Assembly: GCA_965541585.1 (NCBI GenBank)
Contig: CBEUCH010000016.1
Span: 1 to 64,000 of the forward strand
Source of the DNA: an uncultured bacterium
Lineage (GTDB): Bacteria; Zixibacteria; MSB-5A5; UBA10806
Reading direction: 5' to 3'
DNA length: 64,000 nucleotides
Made by a program: the position numbers and the translations under genes. Position 1 is the stretch's first letter. Each line of letters begins with the position of its first letter. The notes beneath the pieces were generated by a model. That model was given only the letters and a program-made list of their open reading frames with translations, was not told the DNA's origin and made no database searches. Below are positions 2,025 to 59,295 of this stretch, piece after piece.

Positions 2025-2036
2025 GGGATTAGAGTT

Positions 2037-42370: not shown

Positions 42371-42388
42371 AAGCTCAAGGGAGAAAAT

Positions 42389-43297: not shown

Positions 43298-43307
43298 GGG
43301 AGAAAAT

Positions 43308-44228
43308 ATGAAAACGCTGCTCTCAATATTATTGGCGATAATGTTCATGCAATCAGCGGCTCTCTCGCAGGACCTGAACAAGATCGTCTTCGGCCCGCTG
43401 GAGGGAGATGATGCCGGAGTTCTGACCGTGCATAACGGCCAGGCCATCGGAGTTGAACTCTGGGTGCGGACAGATCCGGGCAATCCTGCTCCTGTTGTTG
43501 GTGTAGCTCACGGACTCATGTCTGAAGATGTCATCATAGCCGAGCGAAATGGCTTGGATCCTGAGCCCCTGTACGATTGGTGTATGTATTTTGTCGACGG
43601 CCCATACGCTTATGATGACCCGTATGAATATGAATTTCCCATCCCTCCGGGCTGGACATGTGAAATGCAGTGGGCTGTCCCCTGCGATTGGCCGCCCTGT
43701 GGTGACGGCGAACCCGGCGGCGGTCCCATGGACACTCAGGGCGAATGGGACCTCTACGGTAGCTGGCTGATGATCACTAACATCGAAATACCGGCAGAGC
43801 AAACTTATTTCCCATTCCAGGAGGGCTGGTACCCCCATAACGGCGAGGGAACAAAATGGGAATTCGAGGGTGGTGGAGGCGTCGTGCCGGAGCAGTCCTA
43901 CTGCGGCCTGTATTTTGAATCTAATATCTGCTCCTATCTCCTCGGCGATTGCGACCATAACGGCTTTCCGATAGAACTCACCGATGTTTTAGCCATGATC
44001 GGCTTTTACAGGGGGGGAATAGAGCCAGATTATCTATGCGAATGCGGCGAAGATCCGACAGTTTACAGCTTCGCCGCCACAGCCGACCCCAACGGCAACT
44101 GCGCACCCAACGAGCTTAGCGACGTGGTTACCGAGATCGGCGCCTACCGGGGAACCATGACGGCCTCCGGCTGCCCCGACTGCCCCGGTACGGAGGGGAT
44201 AGTGATTCGAGAAAATGAAGGTCAATAA
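43308..44228 (+). CDS. Array paralog 2: variable domain plus dockerin
   Basis: Same architecture as paralog 1. Confidence 0.85.
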   Translation: MKTLLSILLAIMFMQSAALSQDLNKIVFGPLEGDDAGVLTVHNGQAIGVELWVRTDPGNPAPVVGVAHGLMSEDVIIAERNGLDPEPLYDWCMYFVDGPYAYDDPYEYEFPIPPGWTCEMQWAVPCDWPPCGDGEPGGGPMDTQGEWDLYGSWLMITNIEIPAEQTYFPFQEGWYPHNGEGTKWEFEGGGGVVPEQSYCGLYFESNICSYLLGDCDHNGFPIELTDVLAMIGFYRGGIEPDYLCECGEDPTVYSFAATADPNGNCAPNELSDVVTEIGAYRGTMTASGCPDCPGTEGIVIRENEGQ

Positions 44229-44238
44229 GGGCGGAAAT

Positions 44239-45123
44239 ATGAAAACGCTACTCTCAATAATATTGGCTATATTGTTCATGCAATCACCGGCCTCCGCCCA
44301 ATCGAACAAGATCGTCATCGGCCCACTGGAGGGGGATGACGCCGGTGTTTTGACAGTGCACAATGGCGAAGCCATAGAGGTTGAGATATGGGTGCGAACC
44401 GATCCGGATAATCCGGCGGTGGTTATAGGCGTGAGCCACGGATTATTGTCAGAGGATATCATCATAGCGGAGCGAAATGGCATGGATGTTGAGCCCCCGT
44501 ACGACGAATGGCTTCAATATTTTGTAGATGGGCCCTTTACAGATGCCGACGGGGGTGCTTACCCTTATCCTGCCGGCTTTATCGGCGAGATGCAGGGTGC
44601 AATCTGGTGTGGCTTTTTGCCGCCTTGCCCCGACCAACCCATAGACACTCAGGGCGAATGGGACCTTTACGGCACATGGCTGATGGATGTTAATATCGGA
44701 ATACCGACAGAGCAAACTTATTTCCCATTCCAGGAAGGATGGTACCCCCATAGCGGGTATGGCACCCTATGGGCATTCGACGGTGGTGGCATGGTCACTC
44801 CCGAGCAGTCTTACTGCGGCCTTTATTTTGAGCCATATCCTTGTTCATATATCCCCGGCGACTGCGACCATAACGGTTTTCCAATAGAACTCACCGATGT
44901 CCTGGCCATGATAGGTTTTTACAGGGGAACGATGAGACCAGATTTATGCGAATGCGGCGATGATCCCTTAATGCTCTATTTTGCTGCCACCGCCGACCCC
45001 AACGGCAACTGCGCGCCCAACGAGCTTCTGGACGTGGTTACCGAGATAGCCGCCTACCGGGGAACCATGACAGCCTCCGGCTGCCCAGATTGCCCCGGTA
45101 CGGAGGGTTTGTTGCGAAAATAA
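44239..45123 (+). CDS. Array paralog 3: variable domain plus dockerin
   Basis: Same architecture; start moved to ATG 44239 (MKTLLSI) by homology with the other paralogs. Confidence 0.85.
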   Translation: MKTLLSIILAILFMQSPASAQSNKIVIGPLEGDDAGVLTVHNGEAIEVEIWVRTDPDNPAVVIGVSHGLLSEDIIIAERNGMDVEPPYDEWLQYFVDGPFTDADGGAYPYPAGFIGEMQGAIWCGFLPPCPDQPIDTQGEWDLYGTWLMDVNIGIPTEQTYFPFQEGWYPHSGYGTLWAFDGGGMVTPEQSYCGLYFEPYPCSYIPGDCDHNGFPIELTDVLAMIGFYRGTMRPDLCECGDDPLMLYFAATADPNGNCAPNELLDVVTEIAAYRGTMTASGCPDCPGTEGLLRK

Positions 45124-45132
45124 GGCGGTAAT

Positions 45133-46038
45133 ATGAAGAATCTATTCAAAACATTATTGGTAACCTCTTTAATAACAGCGTCAGCTTCCGCCCAATCCAA
45201 TAAGATCGTCGTCGGCCCGCTGGTGGGGGATGATGCCGGAGTCCTGACCGTGCACAATGCTGAGGCTATAGAAGTTGAACTCTGGGTGCGGACCGACCCG
45301 GCTAATCCAACTTCCATTATCGGCGTGGCGCATGGTTTATCCTCAGATAATGTTATTATTGCTGAGCGAAATGGAGTTGTTATAGAACCTGAATACGACG
45401 AGCCCTATTGGTGCACAGTCTGGGTCGACGGGCCTTTTATCCATAATCCAGCTGACGATTTCCCCATTCCGGAAGGTTTGACATGCGAGATCTCGGTCGG
45501 ATTATATACATGGTGGCCCGACTGCATCGGCTGGCCGCTCAATACTCAGGGCGAATGGGACCTCTACGGCACCTGGCTGATGGTTGTTAATACCGGAATA
45601 CCAACAGAGCAAACTTATTTCCCATTGGAAGAGGGCTGGTATCCCCACAACGGAGAGGGCACAAACTGGGCATTCGACCGTGGTGGAGGCGTCACTCCGC
45701 AACAGTCTTACTGCGGCCTGTATTTTGAATCTAACATCTGCTCCTATATCCCCGGCGACTGCGACCATAACGGCTTTCCAATAGAACTCACCGATGTTCT
45801 GGCCATGATAGGCTTTTACAGAGGGGGAATAGAGCCAGATTATCTATGCGAATGCGGGGAAAACCCGACAGTATACAACTTCGCGGCCACAGCCGACCCC
45901 AACGGCAACTGCGCGCCCAACGAGCTTCTGGACGTGGTTACCGAGATAGCCGCCTACCGGGGGACGATGACCGCCTCCGGCTGCCCCGACTGCCCCGGTA
46001 CGGAGGGGATTGTGATTCGAGAAAATGAGGATCAATAA
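45133..46038 (+). CDS. Array paralog 4: variable domain plus dockerin
   Basis: Same architecture. Confidence 0.85.
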   Translation: MKNLFKTLLVTSLITASASAQSNKIVVGPLVGDDAGVLTVHNAEAIEVELWVRTDPANPTSIIGVAHGLSSDNVIIAERNGVVIEPEYDEPYWCTVWVDGPFIHNPADDFPIPEGLTCEISVGLYTWWPDCIGWPLNTQGEWDLYGTWLMVVNTGIPTEQTYFPLEEGWYPHNGEGTNWAFDRGGGVTPQQSYCGLYFESNICSYIPGDCDHNGFPIELTDVLAMIGFYRGGIEPDYLCECGENPTVYNFAATADPNGNCAPNELLDVVTEIAAYRGTMTASGCPDCPGTEGIVIRENEDQ

Positions 46039-46047
46039 GGGGGAAAT

Positions 46048-47502
46048 ATGAAGAGGCTCTTCTGGCTATTACTGATTATATCTTTTATTTCATCATCAGC
46101 TTTCGGACAGGGCCTGAATAAGATCGTCTTCGGCCCGCTGGAGGGAGATGAAGCCGGGGTTCTAACCGTGCATAACGGTGAAGATATCGAGATCGAAATG
46201 TGGGTTCGAACAGACCCTAATAATCCAGGGCCTGTTGATAACATATTTCATGCTCTACTCTCTGAAGATATTATTATCGCCGAACGAAATGGTATTGTTA
46301 TTGAACCTCCGTATGACAATGCCAACTGGGGGGGCTTTGTGGGTGTAGACGGTCCTTACGTTCATAATCCAAACGATAATTACCCTATTCCTGAGGGTTA
46401 TACATGTGAAATCCAGTATGCTCTTCATTGCGACCCTTTTCCCTGCGATACCGACGAAATGGACACACAGGGCGAGTGGGATCTTTACGGGACCTGGATG
46501 ATGGTTGTCAATATGGACATCCCCGTGGATCAGACATATTTTCCTTTCATGGAAGGCTGGTACCCCGGTACGGGAAACGGTACTGAATGGTCGTTCGACG
46601 GTGGTGGCGGCGTCACTCCGGAGCAGTCTTACTGCGGTCTTTATTTCCCGATGCCCCAAACCAATAAGATCGTCTTCGGCCCGCTGGTGGGAGATGAGGC
46701 TGGAGTCTTGACGGTGCATAACAACCAGGCCATCGGAGTTGAACTCTGGGTTCGTACCGATCCGGATAATCCGGCGGTGGTTACAGGCGTGCAACACGGG
46801 TTATTGTCAGAGGATATCATTATCTTAGAGCGAAACGGAATGGATATCGAGCCTCAATATGAATCTAATTACTGGCAAACATTTGTCGACGGCCCATACT
46901 CTTATGATGACCCGTATGAATATGAATTTCCCATCCCTCCGGGCTGGACCTGTGAAATGCAGTGGGCTCTCCGCTGCGATTTGCCGCCCTGCGACGGCGA
47001 ACCCATGGACACTCAGGGCGAATGGGACCTCTACGGTACCTGGCTGATGATCACCAACATCGAAATACCGACAGAGGAAACTTATTTCCCATTCCAGGAG
47101 GGATGGTATCCACATAGCGGGGAAGGCACCCACTGGTCATTCGAAGGTGGTGGAGGCGTATACCCTGAGGAAGATTACTGCGGTTTGTATTTCGAACAGT
47201 ATATCTGCGAATATATTCCCGGCGACTGCGACCATAACGGCTTTCCGATAGAACTCACCGATGTCCTGGCCATGATAGGTTTTTACAGGGGAACGATGAG
47301 ACCAGATTTATGCGAATGCGGCGATGATCCCTTAATGCTCTATTTTGCTGCCACCGCCGACCCCAACGGCAACTGCGCGCCCAACGAGCTTCTGGACGTG
47401 GTTACCGAGATAGCCGCCTACCGGGGAACCATGACAGCCTCCGGCTGCCCAGACTGCCCCGGCTCGGAGGGGCTCGTAATTCGAGAAAATAAAGGGCATT
47501 AG
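46048..47502 (+). CDS. Array paralog 5: two tandem variable domains plus dockerin
   Basis: NKIVFGPL occurs twice (YCGLYFPMPQTNKIVFGPL junction), followed by the dockerin. Confidence 0.85.
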   Translation: MKRLFWLLLIISFISSSAFGQGLNKIVFGPLEGDEAGVLTVHNGEDIEIEMWVRTDPNNPGPVDNIFHALLSEDIIIAERNGIVIEPPYDNANWGGFVGVDGPYVHNPNDNYPIPEGYTCEIQYALHCDPFPCDTDEMDTQGEWDLYGTWMMVVNMDIPVDQTYFPFMEGWYPGTGNGTEWSFDGGGGVTPEQSYCGLYFPMPQTNKIVFGPLVGDEAGVLTVHNNQAIGVELWVRTDPDNPAVVTGVQHGLLSEDIIILERNGMDIEPQYESNYWQTFVDGPYSYDDPYEYEFPIPPGWTCEMQWALRCDLPPCDGEPMDTQGEWDLYGTWLMITNIEIPTEETYFPFQEGWYPHSGEGTHWSFEGGGGVYPEEDYCGLYFEQYICEYIPGDCDHNGFPIELTDVLAMIGFYRGTMRPDLCECGDDPLMLYFAATADPNGNCAPNELLDVVTEIAAYRGTMTASGCPDCPGSEGLVIRENKGH

Positions 47503-47511
47503 GGAGGATAT

Positions 47512-48468
47512 ATGAAAACGTTACTCTCAATAATATTGGCGATATCGATCATGCCGTCAGCGGCCCTTTCGCAGGACCTGAACAAAATCGTCTTCGGGCC
47601 TCTTGTGGGCGACAGTGCCGGAATACTGACTGTCCGCAACGGGGAGGAAATTGCCATTGAAATGTGGATACACGCTGATCCCGAAAATCCATCATGTATT
47701 ATAGGTCTATCTCATGGACTCATAACCGACGACGCTATCATTGCTGAAAGAAACGGCGTTGTCATCGATCCGTATTATGATGAACCCTACTGGGAGTCAG
47801 TCTGGGTTGATGGCCCATTTGACCACAACCCGGAAGATCCCTTTCCGATCCCGGAAGGACATACCGGTGAAAACCAGGTTGCCCTGGGATCCCTATTTGG
47901 TGGTTGTGATAGCATTCTTCATATACTCCCGGATACGGGATGGGTTTATTACGGGTCGTTTTTAATGGTATGTAACGATAACGTACCGCTGGGCGAAATA
48001 TATTATCCATTTTCCATAGGCTGGTATCCGCATAGCGGTCAGGGAACCAGCTGGTCGTTTGATAACCCTCCGGGCGGCAGTGTTGAACCGGAGCAGGATT
48101 ACTGCGGACTTTATTTCGTGCCGGAATGCGATTATGTTCCCGGCGATTGCGACCACGACGGGACTCCGTGGAGGCTTACCGATGTAGTCTCCATGATCGC
48201 CTTCTACAGAGGCTTTGCGGAACCTCCCTATACGTGCTACTGCCCGCCTCATGATGACGATTACCCTCCCGGCGCCGATCCCGACGGCAGTTGTGTTCCG
48301 TATGAGCTCTCCGACGTGGTCATCATGATCACCATGTTCCGGGGTCCTGGATGGCCGCCTTCCGGCTGCCTCGATTGCCGAACTTTCGGCAGGGTGGATT
48401 CGAGAAATGGCGATAATGAGAACCTCGTGCCAACCCTGAAATCAAAGGCTAAGATCGAGAAAGAATGA
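47512..48468 (+). CDS. Array paralog 6: variable domain plus divergent dockerin
   Basis: GDCDHDGTPWRLTDV...ADPDGSCVPYELSDV. Confidence 0.85.
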   Translation: MKTLLSIILAISIMPSAALSQDLNKIVFGPLVGDSAGILTVRNGEEIAIEMWIHADPENPSCIIGLSHGLITDDAIIAERNGVVIDPYYDEPYWESVWVDGPFDHNPEDPFPIPEGHTGENQVALGSLFGGCDSILHILPDTGWVYYGSFLMVCNDNVPLGEIYYPFSIGWYPHSGQGTSWSFDNPPGGSVEPEQDYCGLYFVPECDYVPGDCDHDGTPWRLTDVVSMIAFYRGFAEPPYTCYCPPHDDDYPPGADPDGSCVPYELSDVVIMITMFRGPGWPPSGCLDCRTFGRVDSRNGDNENLVPTLKSKAKIEKE

Positions 48469-48478
48469 ATGGATTAAT

Positions 48479-50713
48479 ATGAAAAAGCTACCGCTTGCAT
48501 TGTTGATTATTCTCTCAGGCACAGCTCTCGCTTCGGCGCAGGATTTAAACAAAATCGTCTTCGGGCCGCTGGAGGGAGATGAGGCGGGAGTTTTGACCGT
48601 GCATAATGGCGAAGATATTGAGATTGAGATGTGGGTCCGGACCGATATCAATAATCCTGAACCCGTTTTTGCCGTAAGCCACGCTTTAATGTCAGAAGAT
48701 GAGATCATAGCTGAGCGTAACGGCGCCCAGCTTGATCCGGATTATGACATGCCGAACTGGGAGCAAGTCTTCGTTGATGGGCCATTTAATCATAATCCCA
48801 ATGATCCCTTCCCAATACTTGAAGGCCACACCTGCGAGATGCTGGGTGCTCTTTATATTGTTTTCCAAGACCCCTACCCGGGTAGCCATCCCCTTGATAC
48901 TCAGGGAGAATGGGATTATTATGGTGCTTTCCTGATGTCCTGTAATGCTGATATCCCGATCGATAATACTTATTATCCGTTTTCAGCGGGTTGGTATCCT
49001 CATAACGGATTAGGTTTCCGATGGACATTCGAGGTAGGCGAATACGTCATACCGGAGCAGGATTATTGCGGGCTTTACGTAACCACAAATGCAGACCCGG
49101 AGTTCACGATCTGTCCTCAAGATACGCAGCATGTTGCTCCCCGGCAGCCGATCTGCCTCGATGTCGCCGGCGTGGACGCAGATACGCTCGATGATCTACA
49201 TATCTCCCTGATCTCCGGACCCGGTACATATTCCGAGGAAATTGGCGGGCCCGGAGGCTTTACCTCGGGTATCTGGTGCTGGGATAATCCTGCGCCAGGC
49301 GCCCACACCGTCCTGCTCGAGCTCAACGACAATGCCGGCGGAGTCGTCTATTGCGAATTTATCCTCGATGTTGAGGACATCGCCCTGGAGATCGAGTCTG
49401 TCGCGGGGTTCCCTGGTGCTACGGTCGTGGTTCCCATTCGCTTGCACACCTGGCTTTTGAGGACCGGCGGTGTGGAGCTCCTCATAACCTGGGATCCGGC
49501 GGATCTGAAACTTACGGAAGTCGTACCTAAGTCACGCATGGACTTCGGCAATGAATACTTCAACCACGATGTAGACAATCCCTGTGATCCGCCCTGCGAC
49601 CCGGGTGGCGCCGTCAGGATTTCCTGGATATCGGATATTGACGACGGCATTCCCCATGCCCCGGCCGGCGCCGGCAGCGACCCGATCTTAGAGTTGATTT
49701 TCGATGTCTACCCCGGCCTGCCATGGGATATGAATATTCCCATCTCCTTCTTCACCCAGCACGATACGGATAACATCGTTGCCGATTCATCCGGTAATGT
49801 CTGGTTCACTCCCGAATTAATCGACGGATGTATCGGAGTGCAGGATCCCTTTACATTCAGGAAGGGCGACCCAAATATGAATGGCCATTTCTTTGAAATA
49901 GGCGATGTATTGCTGGTTATTCGTCGTTTGATTGAGGGCTATGTCGTCTGGTCTGAGAACGGCACTAATGACGACGACCTGCAAGAATACGCCGCTGACT
50001 TGAATAGAAACGGATTTGTGGATTTTTCAGATCTAATGACGTTCATCAACATTTTCAACGGTATTGTCGATCCCCCGTATAAGTTCCGGCCAGGCTCCGG
50101 GGTGGCACGTATCAGCATGACCGAAAATATCGGAGACAATGTGGTTGTATCTATCGATGCGGATGTTGATATTGGCGGGGTCCTTGTCAGAATCTCTCAT
50201 CCGGGCATTGAGCTTGATGCTCCTTATGTCGAAAACAGCATGGAGATTCGCCACCACGATTCCGATGGCCTCATGAGCGCTGTCGTATATTCGCTGGAGG
50301 CAAATACCATACCGGCCGGCAATTCGCATCTTTTCACCATACCTGTTCTCCCTAACGAGGATGGTTGCCTGCGCTTCACCGAGGTTTCCTCCGCCGACTC
50401 TTATGGTCGTCTGATGGAGACTGTGGCTTCTCTGGAGACTCCTCTGCCAACTACCTTTGCCGTCGAGCAAAACTACCCCAACCCATTCAATGCCTCCACA
50501 ACCATCCGATACAGCCTGCCGGAGGCCAGCGAGGTCACAATCGAAATCTTCAACATCCTGGGGCGGAAGGTTGAGACGCTGGTTCAGGAAAAACAGGCTG
50601 CCGGCTATAATCAGGTGGTCTGGGATGCTGAGAATCAGCCGTCGGGAGTCTATTTCTATTGGATAAAAGCCGGAGAATATAAGGAATCGAGGAGCTGTTT
50701 GCTTCTGAAATAG
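48479..50713 (+). CDS. Array paralog 7: scaffold-like protein (variable domain, Ig-like, cohesin-like, dockerin, second sandwich, CTD)
   Basis: Cohesin-like LEIESVAGFPGATVVVPIRL...GGVELLITWDPADL. Dockerin GDPNMNG...DV...AADLNRNGFVDFSDL. QNYPNPFN CTD. Confidence 0.8.
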   Translation: MKKLPLALLIILSGTALASAQDLNKIVFGPLEGDEAGVLTVHNGEDIEIEMWVRTDINNPEPVFAVSHALMSEDEIIAERNGAQLDPDYDMPNWEQVFVDGPFNHNPNDPFPILEGHTCEMLGALYIVFQDPYPGSHPLDTQGEWDYYGAFLMSCNADIPIDNTYYPFSAGWYPHNGLGFRWTFEVGEYVIPEQDYCGLYVTTNADPEFTICPQDTQHVAPRQPICLDVAGVDADTLDDLHISLISGPGTYSEEIGGPGGFTSGIWCWDNPAPGAHTVLLELNDNAGGVVYCEFILDVEDIALEIESVAGFPGATVVVPIRLHTWLLRTGGVELLITWDPADLKLTEVVPKSRMDFGNEYFNHDVDNPCDPPCDPGGAVRISWISDIDDGIPHAPAGAGSDPILELIFDVYPGLPWDMNIPISFFTQHDTDNIVADSSGNVWFTPELIDGCIGVQDPFTFRKGDPNMNGHFFEIGDVLLVIRRLIEGYVVWSENGTNDDDLQEYAADLNRNGFVDFSDLMTFINIFNGIVDPPYKFRPGSGVARISMTENIGDNVVVSIDADVDIGGVLVRISHPGIELDAPYVENSMEIRHHDSDGLMSAVVYSLEANTIPAGNSHLFTIPVLPNEDGCLRFTEVSSADSYGRLMETVASLETPLPTTFAVEQNYPNPFNASTTIRYSLPEASEVTIEIFNILGRKVETLVQEKQAAGYNQVVWDAENQPSGVYFYWIKAGEYKESRSCLLLK

Positions 50714-50731
50714 AGGCTCAAGGGGGAAAAT

Positions 50732-51622
50732 ATGAAGAAGTTAGCAGCGGCGACATTAATCGTGATTTTCAGCTTATCTATAGCCTCCGCCCAATCCAAC
50801 AAGATCGTCTTCGGCCCGCTGGAGGGAGATGATGCCGGGGTTTTGACGGTGCATAATGGTGAGGCTATTGAGATTGAGATGTGGGTACGGACAGATCCGG
50901 ATAATCCTGCCCCTATTATCGGCGTATCGCATTGCCTGATGTCTGCGGATACTATTATCGCCAGCCGCAACGGTGCCACATTTGATTCCGACTATGGCTA
51001 TCCGTGTTGGGATACCTTCGTCAGCCCCCCATTCGGACACCCGTATGATCCGAACATTCCCGAAGGACATACGATACAAGTTGCAGCCGCTATCTATACG
51101 ATATTCGATCCTCCCTGCCACCCAATGGATACGAACGGCGAATGGGACTATTACGGGGCTTTTTTGATGACATGCAATACCGGCCTGCCTGTCGACAGCA
51201 CATATTACCCGTTTTTAGCTGGCTGGTTTCCGCACAGCGGGCAGGGAACCAGTTGGTCTTTTGAAGCTCCGCCGGGCGGAAGCGTGGAGCCAGAACAGGA
51301 TTACTGCGGGCTCTTTTTTCAACCCGAAACCCGTATCGGCCAGAATGAAGGATTGCCTGAAGAGTTTTCCCTTTTCCAAAACCACCCTAATCCGTTCAAC
51401 ACCAAGACCACAATCCGATATAGCCTGCCGGAAGAGAGCGACGTCACCATCGAAATCTACAATATCCTGGGACGAAAGATTGAGACGCTGGTATCGGGAA
51501 TACAGCCAGCCGGATGGCATTCGATGGTATGGGATGCTGAAAATCGGCCGTCAGGAGTCTATTTCTATTGGATAAAAGCCGGAGAATATAAGGAATCGAG
51601 GAGCTGTTTGCTTCTGAAATAG
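50732..51622 (+). CDS. Array paralog 8: variable domain plus CTD
   Basis: NKIVFGPL domain, then QNHPNPFN...SCLLLK. Confidence 0.85.
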   Translation: MKKLAAATLIVIFSLSIASAQSNKIVFGPLEGDDAGVLTVHNGEAIEIEMWVRTDPDNPAPIIGVSHCLMSADTIIASRNGATFDSDYGYPCWDTFVSPPFGHPYDPNIPEGHTIQVAAAIYTIFDPPCHPMDTNGEWDYYGAFLMTCNTGLPVDSTYYPFLAGWFPHSGQGTSWSFEAPPGGSVEPEQDYCGLFFQPETRIGQNEGLPEEFSLFQNHPNPFNTKTTIRYSLPEESDVTIEIYNILGRKIETLVSGIQPAGWHSMVWDAENRPSGVYFYWIKAGEYKESRSCLLLK

Positions 51623-51640
51623 AAGGTCAAGGGGGAAAAT

Positions 51641-52549
51641 ATGAAAAGATTACTGATGCCATTATTAATCGTGATTTTCGGCTTAGCTACAGCCTCCGCC
51701 CAATCCAACAAGATCGTCTTCGGGCCGCTGGAGGGGGATGAAGCCGGGGTTCTAACCGTTCACAATAGTGAGGCTATCGGAATTGAGATGTGGGTGCGAA
51801 CAGACCCGGATAATCCTACGCCCATTATCGCCACAGCGCATGGTCTGATGTCTGAAAATGTGATCATAGTGGAACGAAATCGAATGGATCCTGAGCCGGA
51901 ATATAACTCACTGCCTTGGGCACAGTTCTTTATAGACGGGCCTTATGTATATGATCCCCAATATGACTTTCCTATACCTGAAGGCTGGACATGCGAAATG
52001 CAAGGTGCATTATGTTGTGACCTCCCAGGTGACCCTGGGCCGCGTCTTGACACCCAGGGCGAATGGGATCTTTACGGTACCTGGCTGATGGTCACTAATA
52101 CCGAAATAGCGACAGAGCAAACTTACTTCCCATTCGTAGAAGGCTGGTATCCGCATAGTGGCTTTGGTACTTCCTGGGTGTTCGAGTGGGGTGATGATTG
52201 GGTTGAACCTGACAAGTCTTACTGCGGGTTGTATTTCGAATCTAATATCTGCGTCTATCTCCCCGGCGACTGCGACCATAACGGCTTTCCGATAGAACTC
52301 ACTGATGTCCTGGCCATGATCGGTTTTTATAGAGGGGGAATAGAGCCAGATTATCTATGCGAATGCAGCGAAGATCCGACAGTTTACAACTTCGCCGCCA
52401 CAGCCGACCCCAACGGCAACTGCGCCCCCAACGAGCTTCTGGACGTGGTTACCGAGATAGCCGCTTACCGTGGAACCATGACAGCCTCCGGCTGCCCCGA
52501 CTGCCCCGGCTCCGAAGGAATAGTGAATCGAGAAAATGAAGGGCGATAG
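51641..52549 (+). CDS. Array paralog 9: variable domain plus dockerin
   Basis: Same architecture as paralogs 1-4. Confidence 0.85.
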   Translation: MKRLLMPLLIVIFGLATASAQSNKIVFGPLEGDEAGVLTVHNSEAIGIEMWVRTDPDNPTPIIATAHGLMSENVIIVERNRMDPEPEYNSLPWAQFFIDGPYVYDPQYDFPIPEGWTCEMQGALCCDLPGDPGPRLDTQGEWDLYGTWLMVTNTEIATEQTYFPFVEGWYPHSGFGTSWVFEWGDDWVEPDKSYCGLYFESNICVYLPGDCDHNGFPIELTDVLAMIGFYRGGIEPDYLCECSEDPTVYNFAATADPNGNCAPNELLDVVTEIAAYRGTMTASGCPDCPGSEGIVNRENEGR

Positions 52550-52558
52550 GAGGCCATT

Positions 52559-53452
52559 ATGAGGACCCTGGGATTTATATTGTTTGCATTCATATCTTTA
52601 GGGATGTCTGAGACCTCCGCGCAATCCAACAAAATCGTCTTCGGCCCGCTGGAGGGGGATGAGGCTGGAATCCTGACAGTGCATAACGGAGAGGCCATCG
52701 GAGTTGAACTCTGGGTACGGACAGATCCGGATAATCCCACCGGCATCTGTGGCATGGCCCATGGCCTATCATCAGATGATCTTATAATAGGGAGTCGAAA
52801 CGGAATCGATATTGAACCTGAGTATGACATGCCGAATTGGGAAGCCACCTGGGTTGATGGACCTTTTACGCATAATCCCGATGATCCTTTCCCAATTCCA
52901 CAAGGATTTACGTGCGAAGTTCAAATTGGTTATAGTCTGTGGTGTTCACCGTTTATGGATACGAACGGCGAGTGGGATCTCTATGGCACCTGGCTGATGG
53001 TTACCAATACTGGAGTACCGATAGAGCAGCTCTATTACCCATTTGCAATGGGCTGGTATCCTCATAGCGGACAGGGAACCAGTTGGTCTTTTGAAGCTCC
53101 GCCGGGCGGCTCGGTCGTTCCCGAGCAGGATTACTGCGGGCTCTATTTTGAAACCGAAACCCGTATAGACGAGAATAAAAGATTGCCCCAGGAGTTTTCA
53201 TTGGCTCAAAACTATCCCAATCCCTTCAATGCCAAGACCACAATCCGATACAGCCTGCCGGAAAAGAGCGATGTCACCATAGAAATCTTCGATATCCTGG
53301 GGCGGAAGGTTGAGACGCTGGTTCAAGAAAGACTGGCTGCCGGCTATCATCAGGTGGTCTGGGACGCTGAGAATCAACCATCAGGAAATTATATGTACTG
53401 GATAAAAGCCGGAAAATATAAGGAATCGAGGAGCTGTTTGCTTCTGAAATAG
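52559..53452 (+). CDS. Array paralog 10: variable domain plus CTD
   Basis: NKIVFGPL domain plus QNYPNPFN CTD. Confidence 0.85.
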   Translation: MRTLGFILFAFISLGMSETSAQSNKIVFGPLEGDEAGILTVHNGEAIGVELWVRTDPDNPTGICGMAHGLSSDDLIIGSRNGIDIEPEYDMPNWEATWVDGPFTHNPDDPFPIPQGFTCEVQIGYSLWCSPFMDTNGEWDLYGTWLMVTNTGVPIEQLYYPFAMGWYPHSGQGTSWSFEAPPGGSVVPEQDYCGLYFETETRIDENKRLPQEFSLAQNYPNPFNAKTTIRYSLPEKSDVTIEIFDILGRKVETLVQERLAAGYHQVVWDAENQPSGNYMYWIKAGKYKESRSCLLLK

Positions 53453-53470
53453 AAGCTCAAGGGGGAGAAT

Positions 53471-54364
53471 ATGAAGAAGCTATTACTGGCGACATTAATC
53501 GTGATTTTCAGCTTATCTATTGCCTCCGCCCAATCCAACAAGATCGTCTTCGGGCCGCTGGAGGGGGATGATGCCGGGGTTTTGACGGTGCACAATGCGG
53601 AGAGTATCGAAGTTGAACTCTGGGTGCGGACCGATCCGGATAATCCTGACTGGATCATAGCTGTTTCCCACGGTTTGCTTTCTGAAGATGCCATTATCGC
53701 AGAGCGGAACGGCATGGATCCGGAGCCCGAATACAACATGCCTAACTGGGAAAGTTTCTTTGTCGACGGGCCTTTTGTACATGATCCAGACTATGCTTAT
53801 CCCATTCCGATAGGGTGGACATGCGAGATGCAGGTCGCACTATGCGTCTGGAATCCGGGTTGTAGTTTGGATACCCAGGGCGAATGGGATCTTTATGGCA
53901 CCTGGCTGATGGTTACGAATACCGAAATACCGGTTGAACAGACCTATTACCCTTTTGAAATGGGCTGGTACCCTCACAGTGGTCAGGGAACATCATGGGC
54001 TTTTGAAGTACCACCGGGCGGCATCATTGAGCCGGAGCAGTCTTACTGCGGGCTCTTTTTTGAACCCGAAACAAGTATCGACGAGAATGAAAGCCTGCCT
54101 GAAGAGTTTTTCCTTTTCCAAAACTACCCCAACCCGTTCAACACCAAGACCACAATCCAATACAGCCTGCCGGAAGAGAGCAATGTCACAATCGAAATAT
54201 ACAATATCCTTGGCCGCAGGATCGAGACGCTAATATCCGGGATTCAGCCACCCGGTTCGCATTCGGTGGTATGGGATGCTGAAAATCAACCGTCAGGAGT
54301 CTATTTCTATTGGATAAAAGCCGGAAAATATAAGGAATCGAGGAGCTGTCTGCTTCTGAAATAG
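53471..54364 (+). CDS. Array paralog 11: variable domain plus CTD
   Basis: NKIVFGPL domain plus QNYPNPFN CTD. Confidence 0.85.
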   Translation: MKKLLLATLIVIFSLSIASAQSNKIVFGPLEGDDAGVLTVHNAESIEVELWVRTDPDNPDWIIAVSHGLLSEDAIIAERNGMDPEPEYNMPNWESFFVDGPFVHDPDYAYPIPIGWTCEMQVALCVWNPGCSLDTQGEWDLYGTWLMVTNTEIPVEQTYYPFEMGWYPHSGQGTSWAFEVPPGGIIEPEQSYCGLFFEPETSIDENESLPEEFFLFQNYPNPFNTKTTIQYSLPEESNVTIEIYNILGRRIETLISGIQPPGSHSVVWDAENQPSGVYFYWIKAGKYKESRSCLLLK

Positions 54365-54382
54365 AAGGTCAATGGGGAAAAT

Positions 54383-55276
54383 ATGAAGAAGTTAGCAGCG
54401 GCGACATTAATCGTGATTTTCAGCTTATCTATAGCCTCCGCCCAATCCAACAAGATCGTCTTCGGCCCGCTGGAGGGAGATGATGCCGGGGTTTTGACGG
54501 TGCATAATGGTGAGGCTATTGAGATTGAGATGTGGGTACGGACAGATCCGGATAATCCTGCCCCTATTATTGGCATATCGCATTGTCTGATGTCTGCGGA
54601 TACTATTATCGCCAGCCGTAACGGTGCCACATTTGATCCAGACTACAGCTATCCGTGTTGGAATACCTTCGTCAGCCCCCCATTCGGACACCCGGATTAT
54701 CCGGACCTTCCCGAAGGACATACGATACAAGCTGCAGGCGCTATGCATACGGTATTCGATCCTCCCTGCGATTCAATAGATACGAACGGCGAATGGGATT
54801 ATTACGGGGCTTTTTTGATGACATGCAACACCGGCCTGCCAACAGATGAAACCTATTATCCGTTTTCTATGGGTTGGTATCCTCACAGCGGCGAGGGAAC
54901 AAAATGGGCATTCGCGGGAGGTGGCGGCATCGAGCCGGAACAGTCTTACTGTGGGCTGTATTTTGAGCCATATCCTTGTTTGTACATTCCCGGCGACTGC
55001 GACCATAACAGCTTTCCAATAGAACTCACTGACGTCCTGGCCATGATAGGCTTTTACAGGGGGAATATAGAGCCAGATTATCTATGCGGCTGCGGAGAAG
55101 ACCCCATAATACACGATTTCGCTGCCACCGCCGATCCCAACGGCAACTGCGCCCCCAACGAGCTTCTGGACGTGGTTACCGAGATAGCCGCCTACCGTGG
55201 AACCATGACAGCCTCCGGTTGCCCCGACTGCCCCGGCTCCGAGGGTCTGGTAAAGCGAGAAGATGAAGGTCAATAA
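54383..55276 (+). CDS. Array paralog 12: variable domain plus dockerin
   Basis: N-domain nearly identical to paralog 8, but with a dockerin C-terminus. Confidence 0.85.
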   Translation: MKKLAAATLIVIFSLSIASAQSNKIVFGPLEGDDAGVLTVHNGEAIEIEMWVRTDPDNPAPIIGISHCLMSADTIIASRNGATFDPDYSYPCWNTFVSPPFGHPDYPDLPEGHTIQAAGAMHTVFDPPCDSIDTNGEWDYYGAFLMTCNTGLPTDETYYPFSMGWYPHSGEGTKWAFAGGGGIEPEQSYCGLYFEPYPCLYIPGDCDHNSFPIELTDVLAMIGFYRGNIEPDYLCGCGEDPIIHDFAATADPNGNCAPNELLDVVTEIAAYRGTMTASGCPDCPGSEGLVKREDEGQ

Positions 55277-55285
55277 GGGGCGAAT

Positions 55286-56185
55286 ATGAAAACGCTGCTC
55301 TCAATATTCTTGGTGATATCGATCATGCCGTCAGCGGCCGTTTCGCAGGACCTGAACAAGATCGTCATCGGCCCGCTGGTGGGAGATGATGCTGGCATTT
55401 TGACTGTGCATAACGGCGAAGATATTGAGATTGAGGTATGGGTGCGGACCGACCCGGGTAACCCGGTTTATATAGTCTTTGTTGCTCATGGTCTGTTGTC
55501 TGAAAACGCAATCATAGCGGAGCGAAATGGAATGGACCCTGAGCCTGTATATGACATGCCACCTTGGGAGTCATTCTGGGTCGATGGACCTTTTGTCCAT
55601 AATCCGGAAGACAACTTTCCAATCCCCTCAGGGTGGACCTGCGAAATGCAGGCTGCATGGCTCGGCTGGACCGATCCACCACCACCTCTCGATACACAGG
55701 GAGAATGGGACCTCTACGGCACCTGGCTTATGGTTACGAATACCGAGATACCGATAAACCAGACCTATTACCCACTTGCAATGGGCTGGTATCCGCACAG
55801 CGAGCAGGGGACCTTCTGGGGTTTTCCAGTGCCTCCCGGTGGCTCGGTGGAACCCGAGCAGTCTTACTGCGGGCTCTATTTTGAACCCGAAACAAATATC
55901 GACCAGAATGAAAGATTGCCGCAGGAGTTTTCTCTGGCTCAAAACTACCCCAATCCCTTCAATGCCAAGACCACAATCAAATATGGCCTGCCGGAAGCGA
56001 GGGAGGTTACAATCGAAATCTACAATACCCTGGGACGGAGGGTTGAGACGCTGGTTCAAGAAAAACAGGCTGCCGGCTATCATCAGGTGGTCTGGGATGC
56101 TGAGAATCAGCCGTCAGGAGTCTATTTCTATTGGATAAAAGCCGGAGAATATAAGGAATCGAGGAGCTGTTTGCTTCTGAAATAG
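55286..56185 (+). CDS. Array paralog 13: variable domain plus CTD
   Basis: NKIVIGPL domain plus QNYPNPFN CTD. Confidence 0.85.
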   Translation: MKTLLSIFLVISIMPSAAVSQDLNKIVIGPLVGDDAGILTVHNGEDIEIEVWVRTDPGNPVYIVFVAHGLLSENAIIAERNGMDPEPVYDMPPWESFWVDGPFVHNPEDNFPIPSGWTCEMQAAWLGWTDPPPPLDTQGEWDLYGTWLMVTNTEIPINQTYYPLAMGWYPHSEQGTFWGFPVPPGGSVEPEQSYCGLYFEPETNIDQNERLPQEFSLAQNYPNPFNAKTTIKYGLPEAREVTIEIYNTLGRRVETLVQEKQAAGYHQVVWDAENQPSGVYFYWIKAGEYKESRSCLLLK

Positions 56186-56203
56186 AAGGTCAAGGGGGAA
56201 AAT

Positions 56204-57103
56204 ATGAAGAAGTTATCAGCGGCGACATTAATAGTGCTTTTCGGCTTAGCTATAGCCTCCGCCCAATCCAACAAAATCGTCTTCGGCCCGCTGGAGGGAG
56301 ATGAGGCTGGGGTCTTGACGGTGCATAATGGTGAGGCTATTGAGATTGAGGTATGGGTCAGGACGGATCCATTGAATCCCGCTCCCGTCGTGGGATTTGC
56401 CACCGGATTATTGTCAAATGATAGCTTCATAGCCGAAAGAAACTGTGCCATTTTTAATCCCGAATACCATTGGGAAAGTATGGGCTGCGACGGCCCGTTT
56501 CGACACGATCCGGATGATCCTTTCCCTATCCCGGAAGGTCATACATCGGAATTCATATGGGCCATCTGTCCGCTTTTTCCCCCTCCCTACTGTGATACTC
56601 TTGATACCGGTGGCGAATGGGATTATTTAGCCTCCTTCCTGATGGTCTGCAATACCGGCGTGCCAACAGATGAAACCTATTATCCGTTTTCTATTGGCTG
56701 GTATCCTCACAGCGGCGAGGGAACAAAATGGGCATTCGCGGGTGGTGGTGGCATCACCCCGGAGCAAGACTATTGCGGATTGTATTTTGATGAAATTATC
56801 GTTTGCGATTACATCCCCGGAGATTGCGATCATAACGGCTTTCCAATAGAACTCACCGATGTTCTGGCCATGATAGGATTTTACAGGGGGAATATAGAGC
56901 CAGATTATCTATGCGAATGCGGCGAAGATCCTACAGTCTACAACTTCGCCGCCACCGCCGACCCCAACGGGAACTGCGCCCCCAACGAGCTTCTGGACGT
57001 GGTTACGGAGATAGCCGCCTACCGGGGAACCATGACAGCCTCCGGTTGCCCCGACTGTCCCGGCTCGGAGGGGCTGGTGATTCGAGAAAATGAAGATCAA
57101 TAA
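56204..57103 (+). CDS. Array paralog 14: variable domain plus dockerin
   Basis: Same architecture as the other dockerin paralogs. Confidence 0.85.
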   Translation: MKKLSAATLIVLFGLAIASAQSNKIVFGPLEGDEAGVLTVHNGEAIEIEVWVRTDPLNPAPVVGFATGLLSNDSFIAERNCAIFNPEYHWESMGCDGPFRHDPDDPFPIPEGHTSEFIWAICPLFPPPYCDTLDTGGEWDYLASFLMVCNTGVPTDETYYPFSIGWYPHSGEGTKWAFAGGGGITPEQDYCGLYFDEIIVCDYIPGDCDHNGFPIELTDVLAMIGFYRGNIEPDYLCECGEDPTVYNFAATADPNGNCAPNELLDVVTEIAAYRGTMTASGCPDCPGSEGLVIRENEDQ

Positions 57104-57112
57104 GGGAGAAAT

Positions 57113-58006
57113 ATGAAAACGCTGCTATCAATATTATTGGCGATATCGATCATGCCGTCAGTGACAGTTTCGCAGAACCTGAATAAGATCGTTTTCGGGC
57201 CGCTGGAGGGGGATGATGCCGGGGTTTTGACCGTGCACAACGGCCAGGCTATTGAGATTGAGATGTGGATTAGAACGGATCCGAATAATCCTGCGCCTAT
57301 TATCGGCGTATCGCATTGCCTGATGTCTGCGGATACCATTATCGCCAGCCGCAGTGGTGCCACATTTGATCCCGACTATAGCTATCCCTGTTGGGATACC
57401 TTCGTTAGCCCCCCATACGGACACCCGGATGATCCGAACATTCCCGAAGGATATACGATACAAGCTGCAGGCGCTATCTATACGGTATTCGATCCTCCCT
57501 GCCACCCAATGGATACGAACGGCGAATGGGACTATTACGGGGCTTTTTTGACGACATGTAATACCGGCGTGCCAATAGATGAAACCTATTATCCATTTTC
57601 CAGTGGCTGGTATCCCCACAGCGGGCAGGGAACCAGTTGGTCTTTTGAAGCTCCTCCGGGCGGAAGCGTTGATCCAGAACAGGATTACTGCGGGCTCTAT
57701 TTTGAGCCGGAGATCACTATCGATCCTATTCCTGAGATTCCCTCTGAGTTTTCATTGGCTCAAAACTACCCCAATCCGTTCAACACCAGGACCACAATCC
57801 AATATAGCCTGCCGGAGGAGAGCGGGGTCACAATCGAAATCTACAATATCCTGGGGCGGAAGGTTGAGACGCTGATTCGAGAAAAACAGACAGCCGGCTA
57901 TCATCAGGTGGTCTGGGATGCTGAAAATCAACCGTCAGGAAACTATTTGTACAGAATTAAGGTTGCGGAGTATGTGGAAACGAGGAGTTGCCTGCTTTTG
58001 AAATAA
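57113..58006 (+). CDS. Array paralog 15: variable domain plus CTD
   Basis: N-domain nearly identical to paralogs 8 and 12; CTD C-terminus. Confidence 0.85.
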   Translation: MKTLLSILLAISIMPSVTVSQNLNKIVFGPLEGDDAGVLTVHNGQAIEIEMWIRTDPNNPAPIIGVSHCLMSADTIIASRSGATFDPDYSYPCWDTFVSPPYGHPDDPNIPEGYTIQAAGAIYTVFDPPCHPMDTNGEWDYYGAFLTTCNTGVPIDETYYPFSSGWYPHSGQGTSWSFEAPPGGSVDPEQDYCGLYFEPEITIDPIPEIPSEFSLAQNYPNPFNTRTTIQYSLPEESGVTIEIYNILGRKVETLIREKQTAGYHQVVWDAENQPSGNYLYRIKVAEYVETRSCLLLK

Positions 58007-58145
58007 AGCCGGGACTATGCAAACGGCTTTCCAGAATATGCAGGCAAATCGCAATGAACGGATTTTTCGAAAAGAGGACTTGTAAATCTGGTGTCTTAAT
58101 CGGTGATTCTCAGGATCTGGCGTCAGCCTTTTCCTGGTATGTGAA

Positions 58146-58158
58146 AATCAACCGATTA
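58146..58158 (+). promoter_or_regulatory. IHF consensus site
   Basis: AATCAACCGATTA is an exact match to WATCAANNNNTTR, ~75 bp upstream of a promoter. Confidence 0.4.
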
Positions 58159-58230
58159 ATGGATAAGGAGCCACCCATTTGCCTGCTCAAAAAAAAGGCA
58201 AATAAGCTCCACAATTTTTGCAAAAAAGTC

Positions 58231-58258
58231 TTGACATGGTTGGAAAATGCAATATATT
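58231..58258 (+). promoter_or_regulatory. Sigma70 promoter of the stand-alone paralog
   Basis: TTGACA-N16-TATATT with upstream A/T tracts. Confidence 0.6.
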
Positions 58259-58395
58259 GTTGACATCAAGGATGAGTCGGTTTTGGCCTCTCTGTTATGG
58301 TCATTTGCTGTTGAGGTAAGATCGGGCGATTTAAGGGGTTGGCAAGCAAGAGTGTTAATAAATAAACAGTTTTACCTGATCAAAAGGAGTAAAAC

Positions 58396-59295
58396 ATGAG
58401 GAAATTGTTGTTGTTGGGTTTGGCCATTGTTTTCGCATTCAGCTTGGCATCGGCCGAATCAAACAGGCTGGTCTATGGACCATTGGTTGGCGACGACGCG
58501 GGTGATATCTTAGTCGAGTTTGCCGGCGATCCCGTTGAGGTCGAAATGTGGGTCCGCACCGATCCGGAAAATCCGGCCGCATTCGTGGGAGTGAACCATT
58601 CACTGATGACCGAGGATGCAGTTGTTGCCACGCGCAATGGCGTAACTATCGATCCCGCTTACGCGCCGCCGATGTGGGAGACAATCTGGCTCGACGGCCC
58701 ATACATCCACGATGATGCTGATGATTTTCCTATACCGGTGGGCCACACCAGCGAGTCGGCGGTTGCCTTATACTTTGTATTCGGCGAACCTGAAGGTGAT
58801 CCTCTGGATACGCAGGGAGATTGGGATTTATACGGATCCTATAGCGTGGTCACCAATGAAGAGGCTCTTGAAGGCGAATACCATCCGTTCTCGACGGGCT
58901 GGTATCCCCACAGCGGGCAGGGCACCAGTTGGTCATATGAAACGCCTCCGGGCGGAAGCGCTGATCCCGAACAGGATTACGCTACATTGAATATCGGCCT
59001 GCTGGCCGCTGACGATGACGACATCCTGCCCATTGAATTCTCTCTGGCCCAGAACTACCCCAATCCATTCAACGCCTCCACCACCATCGAATTCAGCCTG
59101 CCGCAGGCCAGCGAAGTTACGATCCATATTTATGATATCCTGGGTCGTAGCATCGAAACGCTGAATACAGGCACGCAGACTGCCGGTAATCATTCCGTTG
59201 TCTGGCATGCCGATAACCAGCCATCGGGCGTCTATTTCTACAGAATCCAGGCCGGGAATTTCAGCGATCAGAAGAGCTGCCTTCTTCTGAAATAA
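58396..59295 (+). CDS. Paralog 16: divergent, separately transcribed variable domain plus CTD
   Basis: SNRLVYGPLVGDDAG...MWVRTDP...GWYPHSGQGTSW; QNYPNPFN CTD; AAGGAG RBS. Confidence 0.88.
   Translation: MRKLLLLGLAIVFAFSLASAESNRLVYGPLVGDDAGDILVEFAGDPVEVEMWVRTDPENPAAFVGVNHSLMTEDAVVATRNGVTIDPAYAPPMWETIWLDGPYIHDDADDFPIPVGHTSESAVALYFVFGEPEGDPLDTQGDWDLYGSYSVVTNEEALEGEYHPFSTGWYPHSGQGTSWSYETPPGGSADPEQDYATLNIGLLAADDDDILPIEFSLAQNYPNPFNASTTIEFSLPQASEVTIHIYDILGRSIETLNTGTQTAGNHSVVWHADNQPSGVYFYRIQAGNFSDQKSCLLLK

Follow-up and report, generated by a model that had tools for sequence, protein, structure and literature searches.

Exchange of C-terminal modules among predicted cohesin genes in a tandem array of an uncultured member of the Zixibacteria

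In a 64,000-nucleotide window from an uncultured bacterium of the Zixibacteria lineage, closely similar N-terminal domains are followed by either a type IX secretion (T9SS) C-terminal domain (CTD) or a Cys-rich tail. The preliminary description of this sequence interpreted the arrangement as class switching, in which recombination would give a single binder a directly secreted and a scaffold-docked form, and the locus thus raises the question of what the two modules are and how they came to be combined.

The array and its two classes of C terminus

The tandem array (g1 to g16, positions 42389 to 59295, forward strand) contains 16 complete and co-oriented genes with 17 predicted cohesin-fold N-domains. 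Nine genes end in a Cys-rich tail of predicted dockerin fold and seven in a T9SS CTD, and the proteins begin with a basic-hydrophobic-AxA signal peptide pattern that was recognized by eye only. Eight array genes have one predicted cohesin and one predicted dockerin per chain, and g5 (46048 to 47502, forward) has two predicted cohesin-fold domains before its predicted dockerin-fold tail. Six of the CTD genes are single-tail genes; the seventh, g7 (48479 to 50713, forward), reaches its CTD via extra domains, namely a spacer domain behind the N-domain, a second cohesin-like domain (called by eye, with a weak PF00963 match in a relative's homolog), a weak PF00404 dockerin, and a further domain. 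This scaffoldin-like gene is kept throughout the family. The last gene, g16 (58396 to 59295, forward), follows a 390-nt spacer and encodes a predicted cohesin-fold domain and a CTD; its orthologs in relatives form a starred clade in which every member has a CTD, and it is a candidate for the main anchor of the system.

The CTDs of g7, g8, g10, g11, g13, g15, and g16 matched PF18962 at 33.8 to 42.7 bits (cut-off, 27), and the four CTD genes tested against TIGR04183 (g7, g8, g15, and g16) were all above its cut-off. The genome encodes T9SS machinery, including PorU (687 bits), PorV, and the translocon protein SprA, whose gene lies in the window (24023 to 29923, reverse strand; PF14349 above cut-off). 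An LVIVD-repeat protein gene (40265 to 42370, forward) carries a CTD that trades DNA with the array, including a 148-nt exact match to the CTD of g13.

Three genes share one type of core: g8 (50732 to 51622), with a signal-peptide-like N terminus, a predicted cohesin-fold domain at 50798 to 51322, and a CTD at 51323 to 51622; g12 (54383 to 55276), with a core at 54449 to 54967 and a predicted dockerin-fold tail at 54968 to 55276; and g15 (57113 to 58006), with a signal peptide of the g6/g13 type, a g8-like core at 57182 to 57706, and a CTD at 57707 to 58006, all on the forward strand. The coordinates and motifs reported earlier for this trio were correct, as was its distribution of tails (CTD, dockerin, and CTD, respectively). 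From PAPII to DPPC, the core DNA was 90% identical between g8 and g12, 93% between g8 and g15, and 89% between g12 and g15, compared with 43 to 67% for the remaining array pairs, except g2/g5b (77%). The N-domain proteins of g12 and g15 were 82% and 87% identical to that of g8, and the other 14 domains were 51 to 66% identical to it. The three N-domains are therefore near one another, yet not identical: the copies have diverged by 7 to 11%, with silent changes among them, and their branching varied by tree, with (g8,g15) starred in one, (g12,g15) unstarred in another, and a third unresolved. A 197-nt tract covering the RBS, signal peptide, and first strands is identical in g12 (54374 to 54570, forward) and g8 (50723 to 50919), and some exchange must thus have been recent. 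The CTDs of g8 and g15, both above Pfam and NCBIfam cut-offs, were only 75% identical, and g12 had no Pfam match.

Predicted folds of the N-domain and the Cys-rich tail

An AF2 model of mature g12 (pLDDT, 91.3) predicts that the N-domain, the "variable domain" of the preliminary description, is a nine-stranded jelly-roll beta-sandwich of cohesin type. The best Foldseek match was the ScaC cohesin of Ruminococcus flavefaciens (5lxv; E, 4.9e-6), and the best 20 rows of a wide VIA structure search were all cohesins (best Z, 14.5; rmsd, 2.5; 142 residues), the nearest non-cohesin fold having a Z of 10.1. Sequence comparison gave little of this signal: no array protein matched PF00963 in a Pfam scan, comparison of the N-domain with sequence-recognizable cohesins by hhalign was weak or nil (probabilities, 6% and 0.1%), iterated profiles from the N-domain did not recruit the Pfam cohesins of this genome, and an array-only profile found no cohesin among solved-structure sequences. 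A protein atlas returned a single cohesin cluster at 0.87, which is a lead only. The array N-domains are accordingly classed as cohesin-like and not as PF00963 members. Dockerin_1 scored above cut-off in distant homologs of the N-domain, and in a family relative, genes with a PF00963 cohesin and a CTD adjoin a g7-like gene. In total, 26 predicted cohesin-fold domains were found in the genome.

According to the parts of PMC5429695 used here, solved cohesins bind dockerin via the face formed by strands 8-3-6-5. The corresponding strands were the more variable ones in the array (mean entropy, 1.41 versus 0.72; P = 3e-4; 17 domains) and in a set of 116 domains (1.59 versus 1.04; P = 0.006), and the loop after strand 6 was very variable (1.9 to 2.3). 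Positive selection on the predicted face was not supported by a rough count, in which pN/pS was 0.16 to 0.55 and below 1 in all 13 pairs. Core clades persist between genomes, and a conserved-face subset (g16, g7, and the multi-cohesin genes on contigs C2 and C29) is retained across relatives.

The Cys-rich tail is predicted to have the duplicated Ca-loop-plus-helix fold of a dockerin, with putative Ca binding. The model of the g12 tail has two D..N loops and helices at residues 20 to 31 and 66 to 77, and 14 of the 15 chains that it matched structurally at a Z of at least 2 contained dockerins (best Z, 8.5; rmsd, 1.4; 61 of 62 residues). In a Pfam scan, PF00404 matched neither this tail nor the other array tails; among 36 aligned tails, it matched three (best E, 4.5e-10). 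An array-only tail profile retrieved no dockerin and one irrelevant match from solved-structure sequences, and dockerins made up 11 of the 12 weak matches (E, 0.03 to 0.97) to a wider tail profile. The genome is predicted to encode 44 dockerin-fold tails, with the common pattern EL.D..I..YR, and 11 of these form a GDSDE-type subgroup.

Tail exchange and its breakpoints

Mapping of tail class on the core phylogeny bore out the previously suggested incongruence between N-domain and tail trees. The CTD genes required six changes on the core tree, a number that all of 500 shuffles equaled, and one change on the tree of the 3' part, which none of 500 shuffles reached, the branch itself being unsupported (22/0). 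An AU test against a CTD clade on the core tree gave P = 4e-6 for the window and 1e-38 for 54 domains, and in the tree that included relatives, starred branches force at least seven CTD changes. Tails differed in 27 of the 89 dockerin/CTD core pairs with at least 75% identity. Some dependence between core and tail remains, because tail class was still somewhat clustered over the 54 domains (nine CTD changes versus 14.0 shuffled). Within a class, core and tail distances were uncorrelated (Mantel rho, -0.09 and 0.10), and tails have been exchanged within classes too, e.g., the CTDs of g8 and g15. The C-terminal module is thus traded by recombination, mostly independently of the core.

Breakpoints lie in at least three zones: the signal peptide, the stretch before strand 8, and, by inference, the domain end. 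In g12, the crossover zone (54836 to 54892, forward) lies upstream of predicted strand 8, with MaxChi placing the breakpoint at 54836 to 54841 for parents g8/g14 and at 54888 to 54892 for g15/g2 (permutation P, ≤0.0005 for both). The nearest source of its 3' segment is g14 (56204 to 57103, forward), which has a core of another type and a predicted dockerin-fold tail; as noted earlier, the two share TDETYYPFS.GWYPHSGEGTKWAFAGGGGI and differ upstream, and the first part of this stretch is 93% identical in DNA. The 5' breakpoint of g15 (57177 to 57194, forward) joins a g13-like signal peptide to a g8-like core, and signal peptides go with the tail of the upstream gene. The change in g8 was placed at the domain end because members of its clade in relatives combine a PPGG end like that of g8 with a dockerin. 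The expectation of a crossover near the YYPF..GWYPH block was hence correct for g12 and failed for other genes, whose breakpoints lie elsewhere. Similarly, the proposal that the last strands travel with the tail held in this genome, where the PPGG form occurs in all six single-tail CTD genes and the GGG form in seven of nine dockerin genes (g6 having PPGG and g9 neither), and it failed outside it, where homologous domains comprised 39 dockerin+PPGG, 14 dockerin+GGG, 12 dockerin+other, 22 CTD+PPGG, and 2 CTD+GGG combinations. The coupling of last strand to tail is therefore mostly a feature of this genome.

CTD/dockerin interchange is also seen elsewhere in the genome, in genes unrelated to the array. 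Of the 32 dockerin proteins that lack a cohesin, eight have a paralog with a CTD, the match covering at least 97% of the body in five of the eight, and none of the 44 Cys-rich dockerins shares a protein with a CTD.

Anchors, adaptors, and alternative readings

We consider it probable (roughly 0.7) that the array genes are DNA mosaics whose predicted cohesins serve as surface anchors where a CTD follows and as plug-in adaptors where a dockerin follows, in a cellulosome-like complex. The mosaics likely arose when neighboring genes underwent ordinary homologous recombination or gene conversion. Crossovers would fall wherever paralogs share framework DNA (signal peptide and strand 1, before strand 8, the domain end, and inside the tails), and exchange would accrue over evolutionary time and not at a switch site. 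The CTD forms would be exported by the T9SS, processed by PorU, and offer a cohesin face to the 44 dockerin-tailed proteins of the genome; the dockerin forms may dock on such anchors and show another face, like ScaC in R. flavefaciens, and face variation likely serves to sort dockerins by subgroup. A point against the anchor-adaptor reading is that 44 dockerins with one pattern face widely differing cohesins, and a simple self-self system needs no such spread.

A related but unlikely reading takes the dockerin tail as an indirect tag for type IX export, its bearers passing SprA on cohesin-CTD carriers, and the array as a set of recombining carriers and adaptors whose variable faces would additionally bind dockerins from elsewhere in the community. 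Tails would then be interchangeable and mutually exclusive genome-wide because dockerin cargo rides on cohesin-CTD carriers; such piggy-back export is not forced, since the genome has three pilus/T2SS-type secretin clusters.

It is also unlikely, and a shade more doubtful, that the predicted cohesins of the variable clades bind foreign dockerins or other ligands instead of the dockerins of this cell and are shown directly (CTD) or via a conserved scaffold (dockerin). The single dockerin pattern set against widely varied faces, above all the strand-6 loop, is consistent with this reading, as is the difference in array size between congeners with identical upstream neighbors (16 genes here and seven in G002), and the conserved-face subset could be the true scaffold. 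The low pN/pS of the face in every pair and the persistence of core clades across genomes argue against it, and dockerin subgroups such as the GDSDE type could match different faces.

Immunoglobulin class-switch recombination and shufflons (Rci/PilV) use a dedicated enzyme at fixed sites within a cell lineage. The array resembles them in joining one N-terminal part to alternative C-terminal parts and differs in that its genes are all complete and co-oriented, with varied breakpoints and no linked recombinase found. That a dedicated, ongoing recombination at a fixed zone maintains one binder in two forms within the population is improbable: the association of last strands with tails in this genome, the g12 breakpoint near YYPF..GWYPH, and the 197 nt identical in g8 and g12 would fit it, but breakpoints occur in several zones, swaps occur within classes, the g8 change sits at the domain end, and the copies have diverged, with unlike predicted faces in g8 and g12. 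Integrase-linked switching was ruled out, none of the six PF00589 matches in the genome being on contig C16 (and no recombinase was among the 38 window proteins scanned), as was a diversity-generating retroelement, there being no PF00078 reverse transcriptase match in this 98% complete genome. The antibody-like analogy thus gave way, and the notion of one binder in two forms is not supported, for the predicted face of g12 differs from that of g8 in strands 5, 6, and 8, with 16 amino-acid-changing codons upstream of the breakpoint and strands 5 and 6 already different there. Exchange of the C terminus independently of specificity held only for the exchange itself, since g12 received, with its new 3' segment, predicted strand 8 and the 8-9 loop, part of the cohesin dockerin-binding face. 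As the "binder" is a predicted cohesin, i.e., a scaffold module, the pair makes better sense as anchor and adaptor than as secreted and docked copies of an antibody-like molecule.

Mis-assembly is an unlikely cause of the mixed junctions, and the idea that they are chimeras of near-identical repeats retains very little probability: a congener array is ordered differently in two near-identical assemblies, at 15- to 41-nt repeats inside dockerin tails, so that arrays of this kind can be joined wrongly or reshuffled, and a public read run (share, 0.06) cannot test the junctions because 121 of its 129 records are <95% alike to the array and hence a relative's, but the congener's variable joins are dockerin to dockerin, none of the longest array repeats (206, 197, and 148 nt) crosses a core-tail junction, no exact repeat between genes of different class exceeds 29 nt in the 3' half of the domain (the 29-nt one being shared by g8 and g12 themselves), re-joining within g8/g12/g15 would still leave both tail classes, and separately assembled relatives show the g8/g12/g15 core clade with both tails and further tail swaps in other core clades across genomes.

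The closest counterparts are the ScaC (adaptor) and ScaE (anchoring) scaffoldins of R. flavefaciens (PDB 5LXV and 2ZF9; PMC5429695), which, in the portions of that source consulted, likewise place a cohesin+dockerin adaptor beside a cohesin with a cell-anchoring signal, with variation on the 8-3-6-5 face. Here, in contrast, a host with T9SS machinery uses a T9SS CTD as the anchor signal, the dockerin is Cys-rich, the two domains have diverged beyond recognition by Pfam, and 16 paralogs, called monovalent and putatively dockerin-binding, trade tails in one array. The "Candidatus Stygibacter" (Cloacimonadota) MAG is described as cellulosome-like, with dockerin-tailed secreted proteins and a 3,755-aa scaffoldin of tandem cohesins and CBMs (PMC8542988); like the CTD forms of the array, that scaffoldin has a C-terminal domain, cited there to T9SS literature, and unlike the array, no single-cohesin gene array or tail exchange is described in the text consulted. 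The array CTDs resemble T9SS type A cargo (TIGR04183/PF18962) in scoring above cut-off in a genome encoding SprA, PorU, and PorV, and differ in that, genome-wide, paralogous bodies bear either the CTD or a predicted dockerin-fold tail. Open full texts yielded nothing on dockerin, cohesin, or T9SS secretion in Zixibacteria and nothing joining cohesin, dockerin, gene conversion, and tandem genes; subscription papers and supplements could describe such a system.

The findings suggest that an uncultured lineage has a cellulosome-like cohesin-dockerin system based on type IX secretion, both of whose modules are missed by Pfam, with probable anchors and adaptors that are interconverted through recombination within one array. 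They raise the question of how proteins that carry a dockerin tail and no CTD get past the outer membrane, and the diverged cohesin faces may provide a natural set in which to test specificity rules and find orthogonal pairs.

Array architecture and predicted folds

At 42389-59295 the window contained 16 co-oriented genes (g1 to g16) in which a ~175-aa domain, here termed the N-domain or core, occurred 17 times. Seven of the 16 genes were terminated by a T9SS C-terminal domain (CTD) above the Pfam cut-off and nine by a Cys-rich tail with no Pfam match. The cores of g8 (50732-51622), g12 (54383-55276), and g15 (57113-58006) were 89 to 93% identical at the DNA level; the remaining core pairs were 43 to 67% identical, except for g2 and g5b (one of the two domains of g5), at 77%. 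At the protein level, identity to the g8 domain was 82% for g12, 87% for g15, and 51 to 66% for the other 14 domains. In line with the preliminary description, g8 and g15 carried a CTD and g12 a Cys-rich tail on these closely related cores, and the last-strand motifs were PPGG in all six single-tail CTD genes and the GGG form in seven of the nine Cys-rich tail genes. The observation was confirmed.

Mature g12 was modeled with AF2 from 70 sequences (pLDDT, 91.3); the model's first-ranked Foldseek match was the ScaC cohesin of R. flavefaciens, and the best 20 matches in a VIA search of 48,161 chains were all cohesins (top Z, 14.5). The g12 tail, modeled alone (pLDDT, 86.0), matched dockerin-containing chains in 14 of 15 matching rows (best Z, 8.5; rmsd, 1.4). 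The N-domain is accordingly a predicted cohesin fold and the tail a predicted dockerin fold, although sequence profiles of the two gave these identities no support, and the array was not assigned to PF00963 or PF00404 because the profile tests failed. Distant N-domain homologs carried Pfam dockerins above the cut-off. By its predicted folds, the array system would work like the ScaC/ScaE scaffoldins.

Breakpoints, predicted binding face, and assembly

Recombination breaks were located by MaxChi in both g12 and g15. In g12, similarity to g8 gave way to similarity to g14 at 54836-54841 (112:7 informative sites on the left and 13:37 on the right; p<=0.0005); when g15 and g2 were taken as the parents, the break fell at 54888-54892 (p<=0.0005). 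The g15 sequence contained a separate break, at 57177-57194, and a short tract resembling g14 that started at 57556-57569. A gene like g14 (56204-57103) was probably the donor of the g12 3' segment. On the core tree of the window the CTD label required six changes, a number equaled or undercut by 500 of 500 shuffles (mean, 5.2), and grouping the CTD genes as a clade was rejected (AU p 4e-6). On the tree of the 3' part it required one change (0 of 500 shuffles as low), on an unsupported branch. Exchange also occurred within a tail class, since the CTDs of g8 and g15 were only 75% identical (that of g11 was nearest to g8's, at 88%) and, within each class, the distances between cores showed no correlation with those between tails. 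MKKL-type signal peptides were found in 6/6 array genes whose immediate upstream neighbor ended in a CTD and in 0/9 behind a dockerin tail (g16, behind a long spacer, was excluded); the array signal peptides travel with the tail of the preceding gene. An LVIVD-repeat gene upstream of the array joins the exchange, because a 148-nt exact CTD tract is common to it and g13 (42226-42373 and 56041-56188).

The genes are mosaics with tails largely unlinked from their cores. To this extent the earlier interpretation was supported; its class switch and its independence of tail from specificity were not. CTD and Cys-rich dockerin tail are mutually exclusive. In solved cohesin complexes, as outlined in PMC5429695, dockerins bind to a plateau formed by the 8-3-6-5 sheet, and the 8-9 loop contacts dockerin helix 1. 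In the N-domain, variation was concentrated on predicted strands 8, 3, 6, and 5 and in the loop that follows strand 6. The predicted strand 8 and 8-9 loop lay within the imported g12 segment, and strands 5 and 6 also differed from those of g8, so that g8 and g12 are not necessarily one binder in two forms of equal specificity. The predicted face had pN/pS of 0.16 to 0.55 across 13 pairs, and in 10 of them it changed more quickly than the framework; selection on it is still purifying. All 44 Cys-rich dockerin-fold tails of the genome shared a single EL.D..I..YR pattern, yet the cohesin faces were highly varied, for which a repertoire directed at foreign ligands could account; dockerin subgroups (the GDSDE type constituted 11 of the 44) could also account for it, and the foreign-ligand reading is considered unlikely. 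Programmed switching is less probable still, with no PF00589 integrase on the contig of the window (CBEUCH010000016.1) and no reverse transcriptase found in the genome.

The longest exact repeats of the array were 206, 197, and 148 nt, none spanning a core-tail junction, and within the domain's 3' half the longest between different-class genes was 29 nt (g8 versus g12). On two metagenome contigs with 500- to 1100-nt exact matches to a congener (G002), the array genes stood in another order (A-E and B-F versus A-B-C-D-E-F; near-identical contigs, L021 of G002 versus L047 and L048). Such arrays can be mis-joined or rearranged, since these orders were joined at 15- to 41-nt repeats within dockerin tails, through either strain rearrangement or one mis-assembly, but the joins leave tail class unchanged. 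Mis-assembly is a highly improbable source of the mixed junctions.

Tail exchange among relatives

The N-domain was present in 13 of 61 genomes searched (this one included), with strong matches in both congeners (11 and 10) and weak ones elsewhere in the family; G002 had seven array genes with the same upstream neighbors. In a DNA tree of 54 domains, selected from 62 by setting aside 8 that were fragmentary or near-duplicate, the CTD label was somewhat clustered, because it required nine changes (seven forced by starred branches) versus 14.0 when shuffled, and a CTD clade was rejected (AU p 1e-38). In the relative G001, a g10 core was joined to the long tail type of g7, a scaffoldin-like gene; the g14 clade had CTDs in two relatives; and a contig-end fragment combined the g6 core motif with a CTD. 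Among 116 domains of 108 proteins, dockerin/CTD pairs differing in tail constituted 27 of 89 at core identity of at least 75% and 3 of 18 at at least 85%.

Members of the g8/g12/g15 clade from outside this genome carried a dockerin tail in 8/9 cases and a CTD in 1/9, with a PPGG end in 9/9; g8 probably acquired its CTD at the domain end. Branching order among the three genes was unstable between trees. The linkage of last strand to tail was local to this genome, because dockerin genes elsewhere mostly read PPGG (39, versus 14 GGG and 12 other). Short arrays with mixed CTD and dockerin-like tails were seen in three more distant family members (L029 in G007, L030 in G010, and L035 in G008), and in G008 three CTD genes stood in tandem, of which two had a PF00963 cohesin scoring above the cut-off.

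Genome context and proposed mechanism

Genome-wide, the N-domain occurred 26 times, in 22 ORFs, of which 12 ended in the tail and 10 in a CTD. Among these ORFs were one with three tandem copies plus dockerin (contig C2, 116002-117981), one with two (C29, 18487-20106), two neighbors that had related cores but ended one in a CTD and the other in a dockerin (C6, 36004-37842), and a single N-domain CTD gene (C8, 77785-78699). A wider profile added one more distant member on C13. In the C13 cluster (43711-74193), sequence-recognizable cohesin+dockerin and cohesin+CTD genes (two of the latter) adjoined an N-domain scaffoldin gene, together with a cohesin/dockerin/CTD gene of 709 aa and a gene for a repeat protein of 7,577 aa whose terminal dockerin-like duplication had the EL.D..I..YR pattern of the 44 tails. 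The T9SS components SprA, PorU, and PorV were encoded, as were three secretin clusters. By eye, ~16 of the 44 tails had an extra basic C-terminal extension, P(S/T)LK.K (e.g., the g6 tail, 48121-48468), possibly an additional sorting signal. Three ORFs of ~116 to 120 aa (C3, 21135-21494; C6, 206744-207094 and 207926-208273), with a signal-peptide-like start, one dockerin-fold tail, and little else, are possible cohesin caps. At 588-3452 of the window, two adjacent genes encoded beta-helix-like proteins whose ends resembled a CTD.

Cloacimonadota MAGs had already been inferred to encode a cohesin scaffoldin with a CTD, as described in PMC8542988; neither tail exchange nor an array of this kind was found described in the openly accessible article texts searched. 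The favored reading, given a probability of about 0.7, is that unequal crossing-over and gene conversion interconvert anchors and adaptors in a cellulosome-like surface system. Crossovers would fall at framework DNA common to the paralogs, converting an anchor (cohesin-CTD, exported by the T9SS) into an adaptor (cohesin-dockerin) and back. The Cys-rich tail occurred in 44 ORFs, none with a CTD, and CTD ORFs numbered 177. Among 32 non-cohesin dockerin proteins (bodies of at least 40 aa in 28), 8 had a CTD-tailed paralog at at least 40% identity over at least 60% of the body, nearly end to end in 5. CTD/dockerin interchange extends across the genome and is concentrated in the tandem array.
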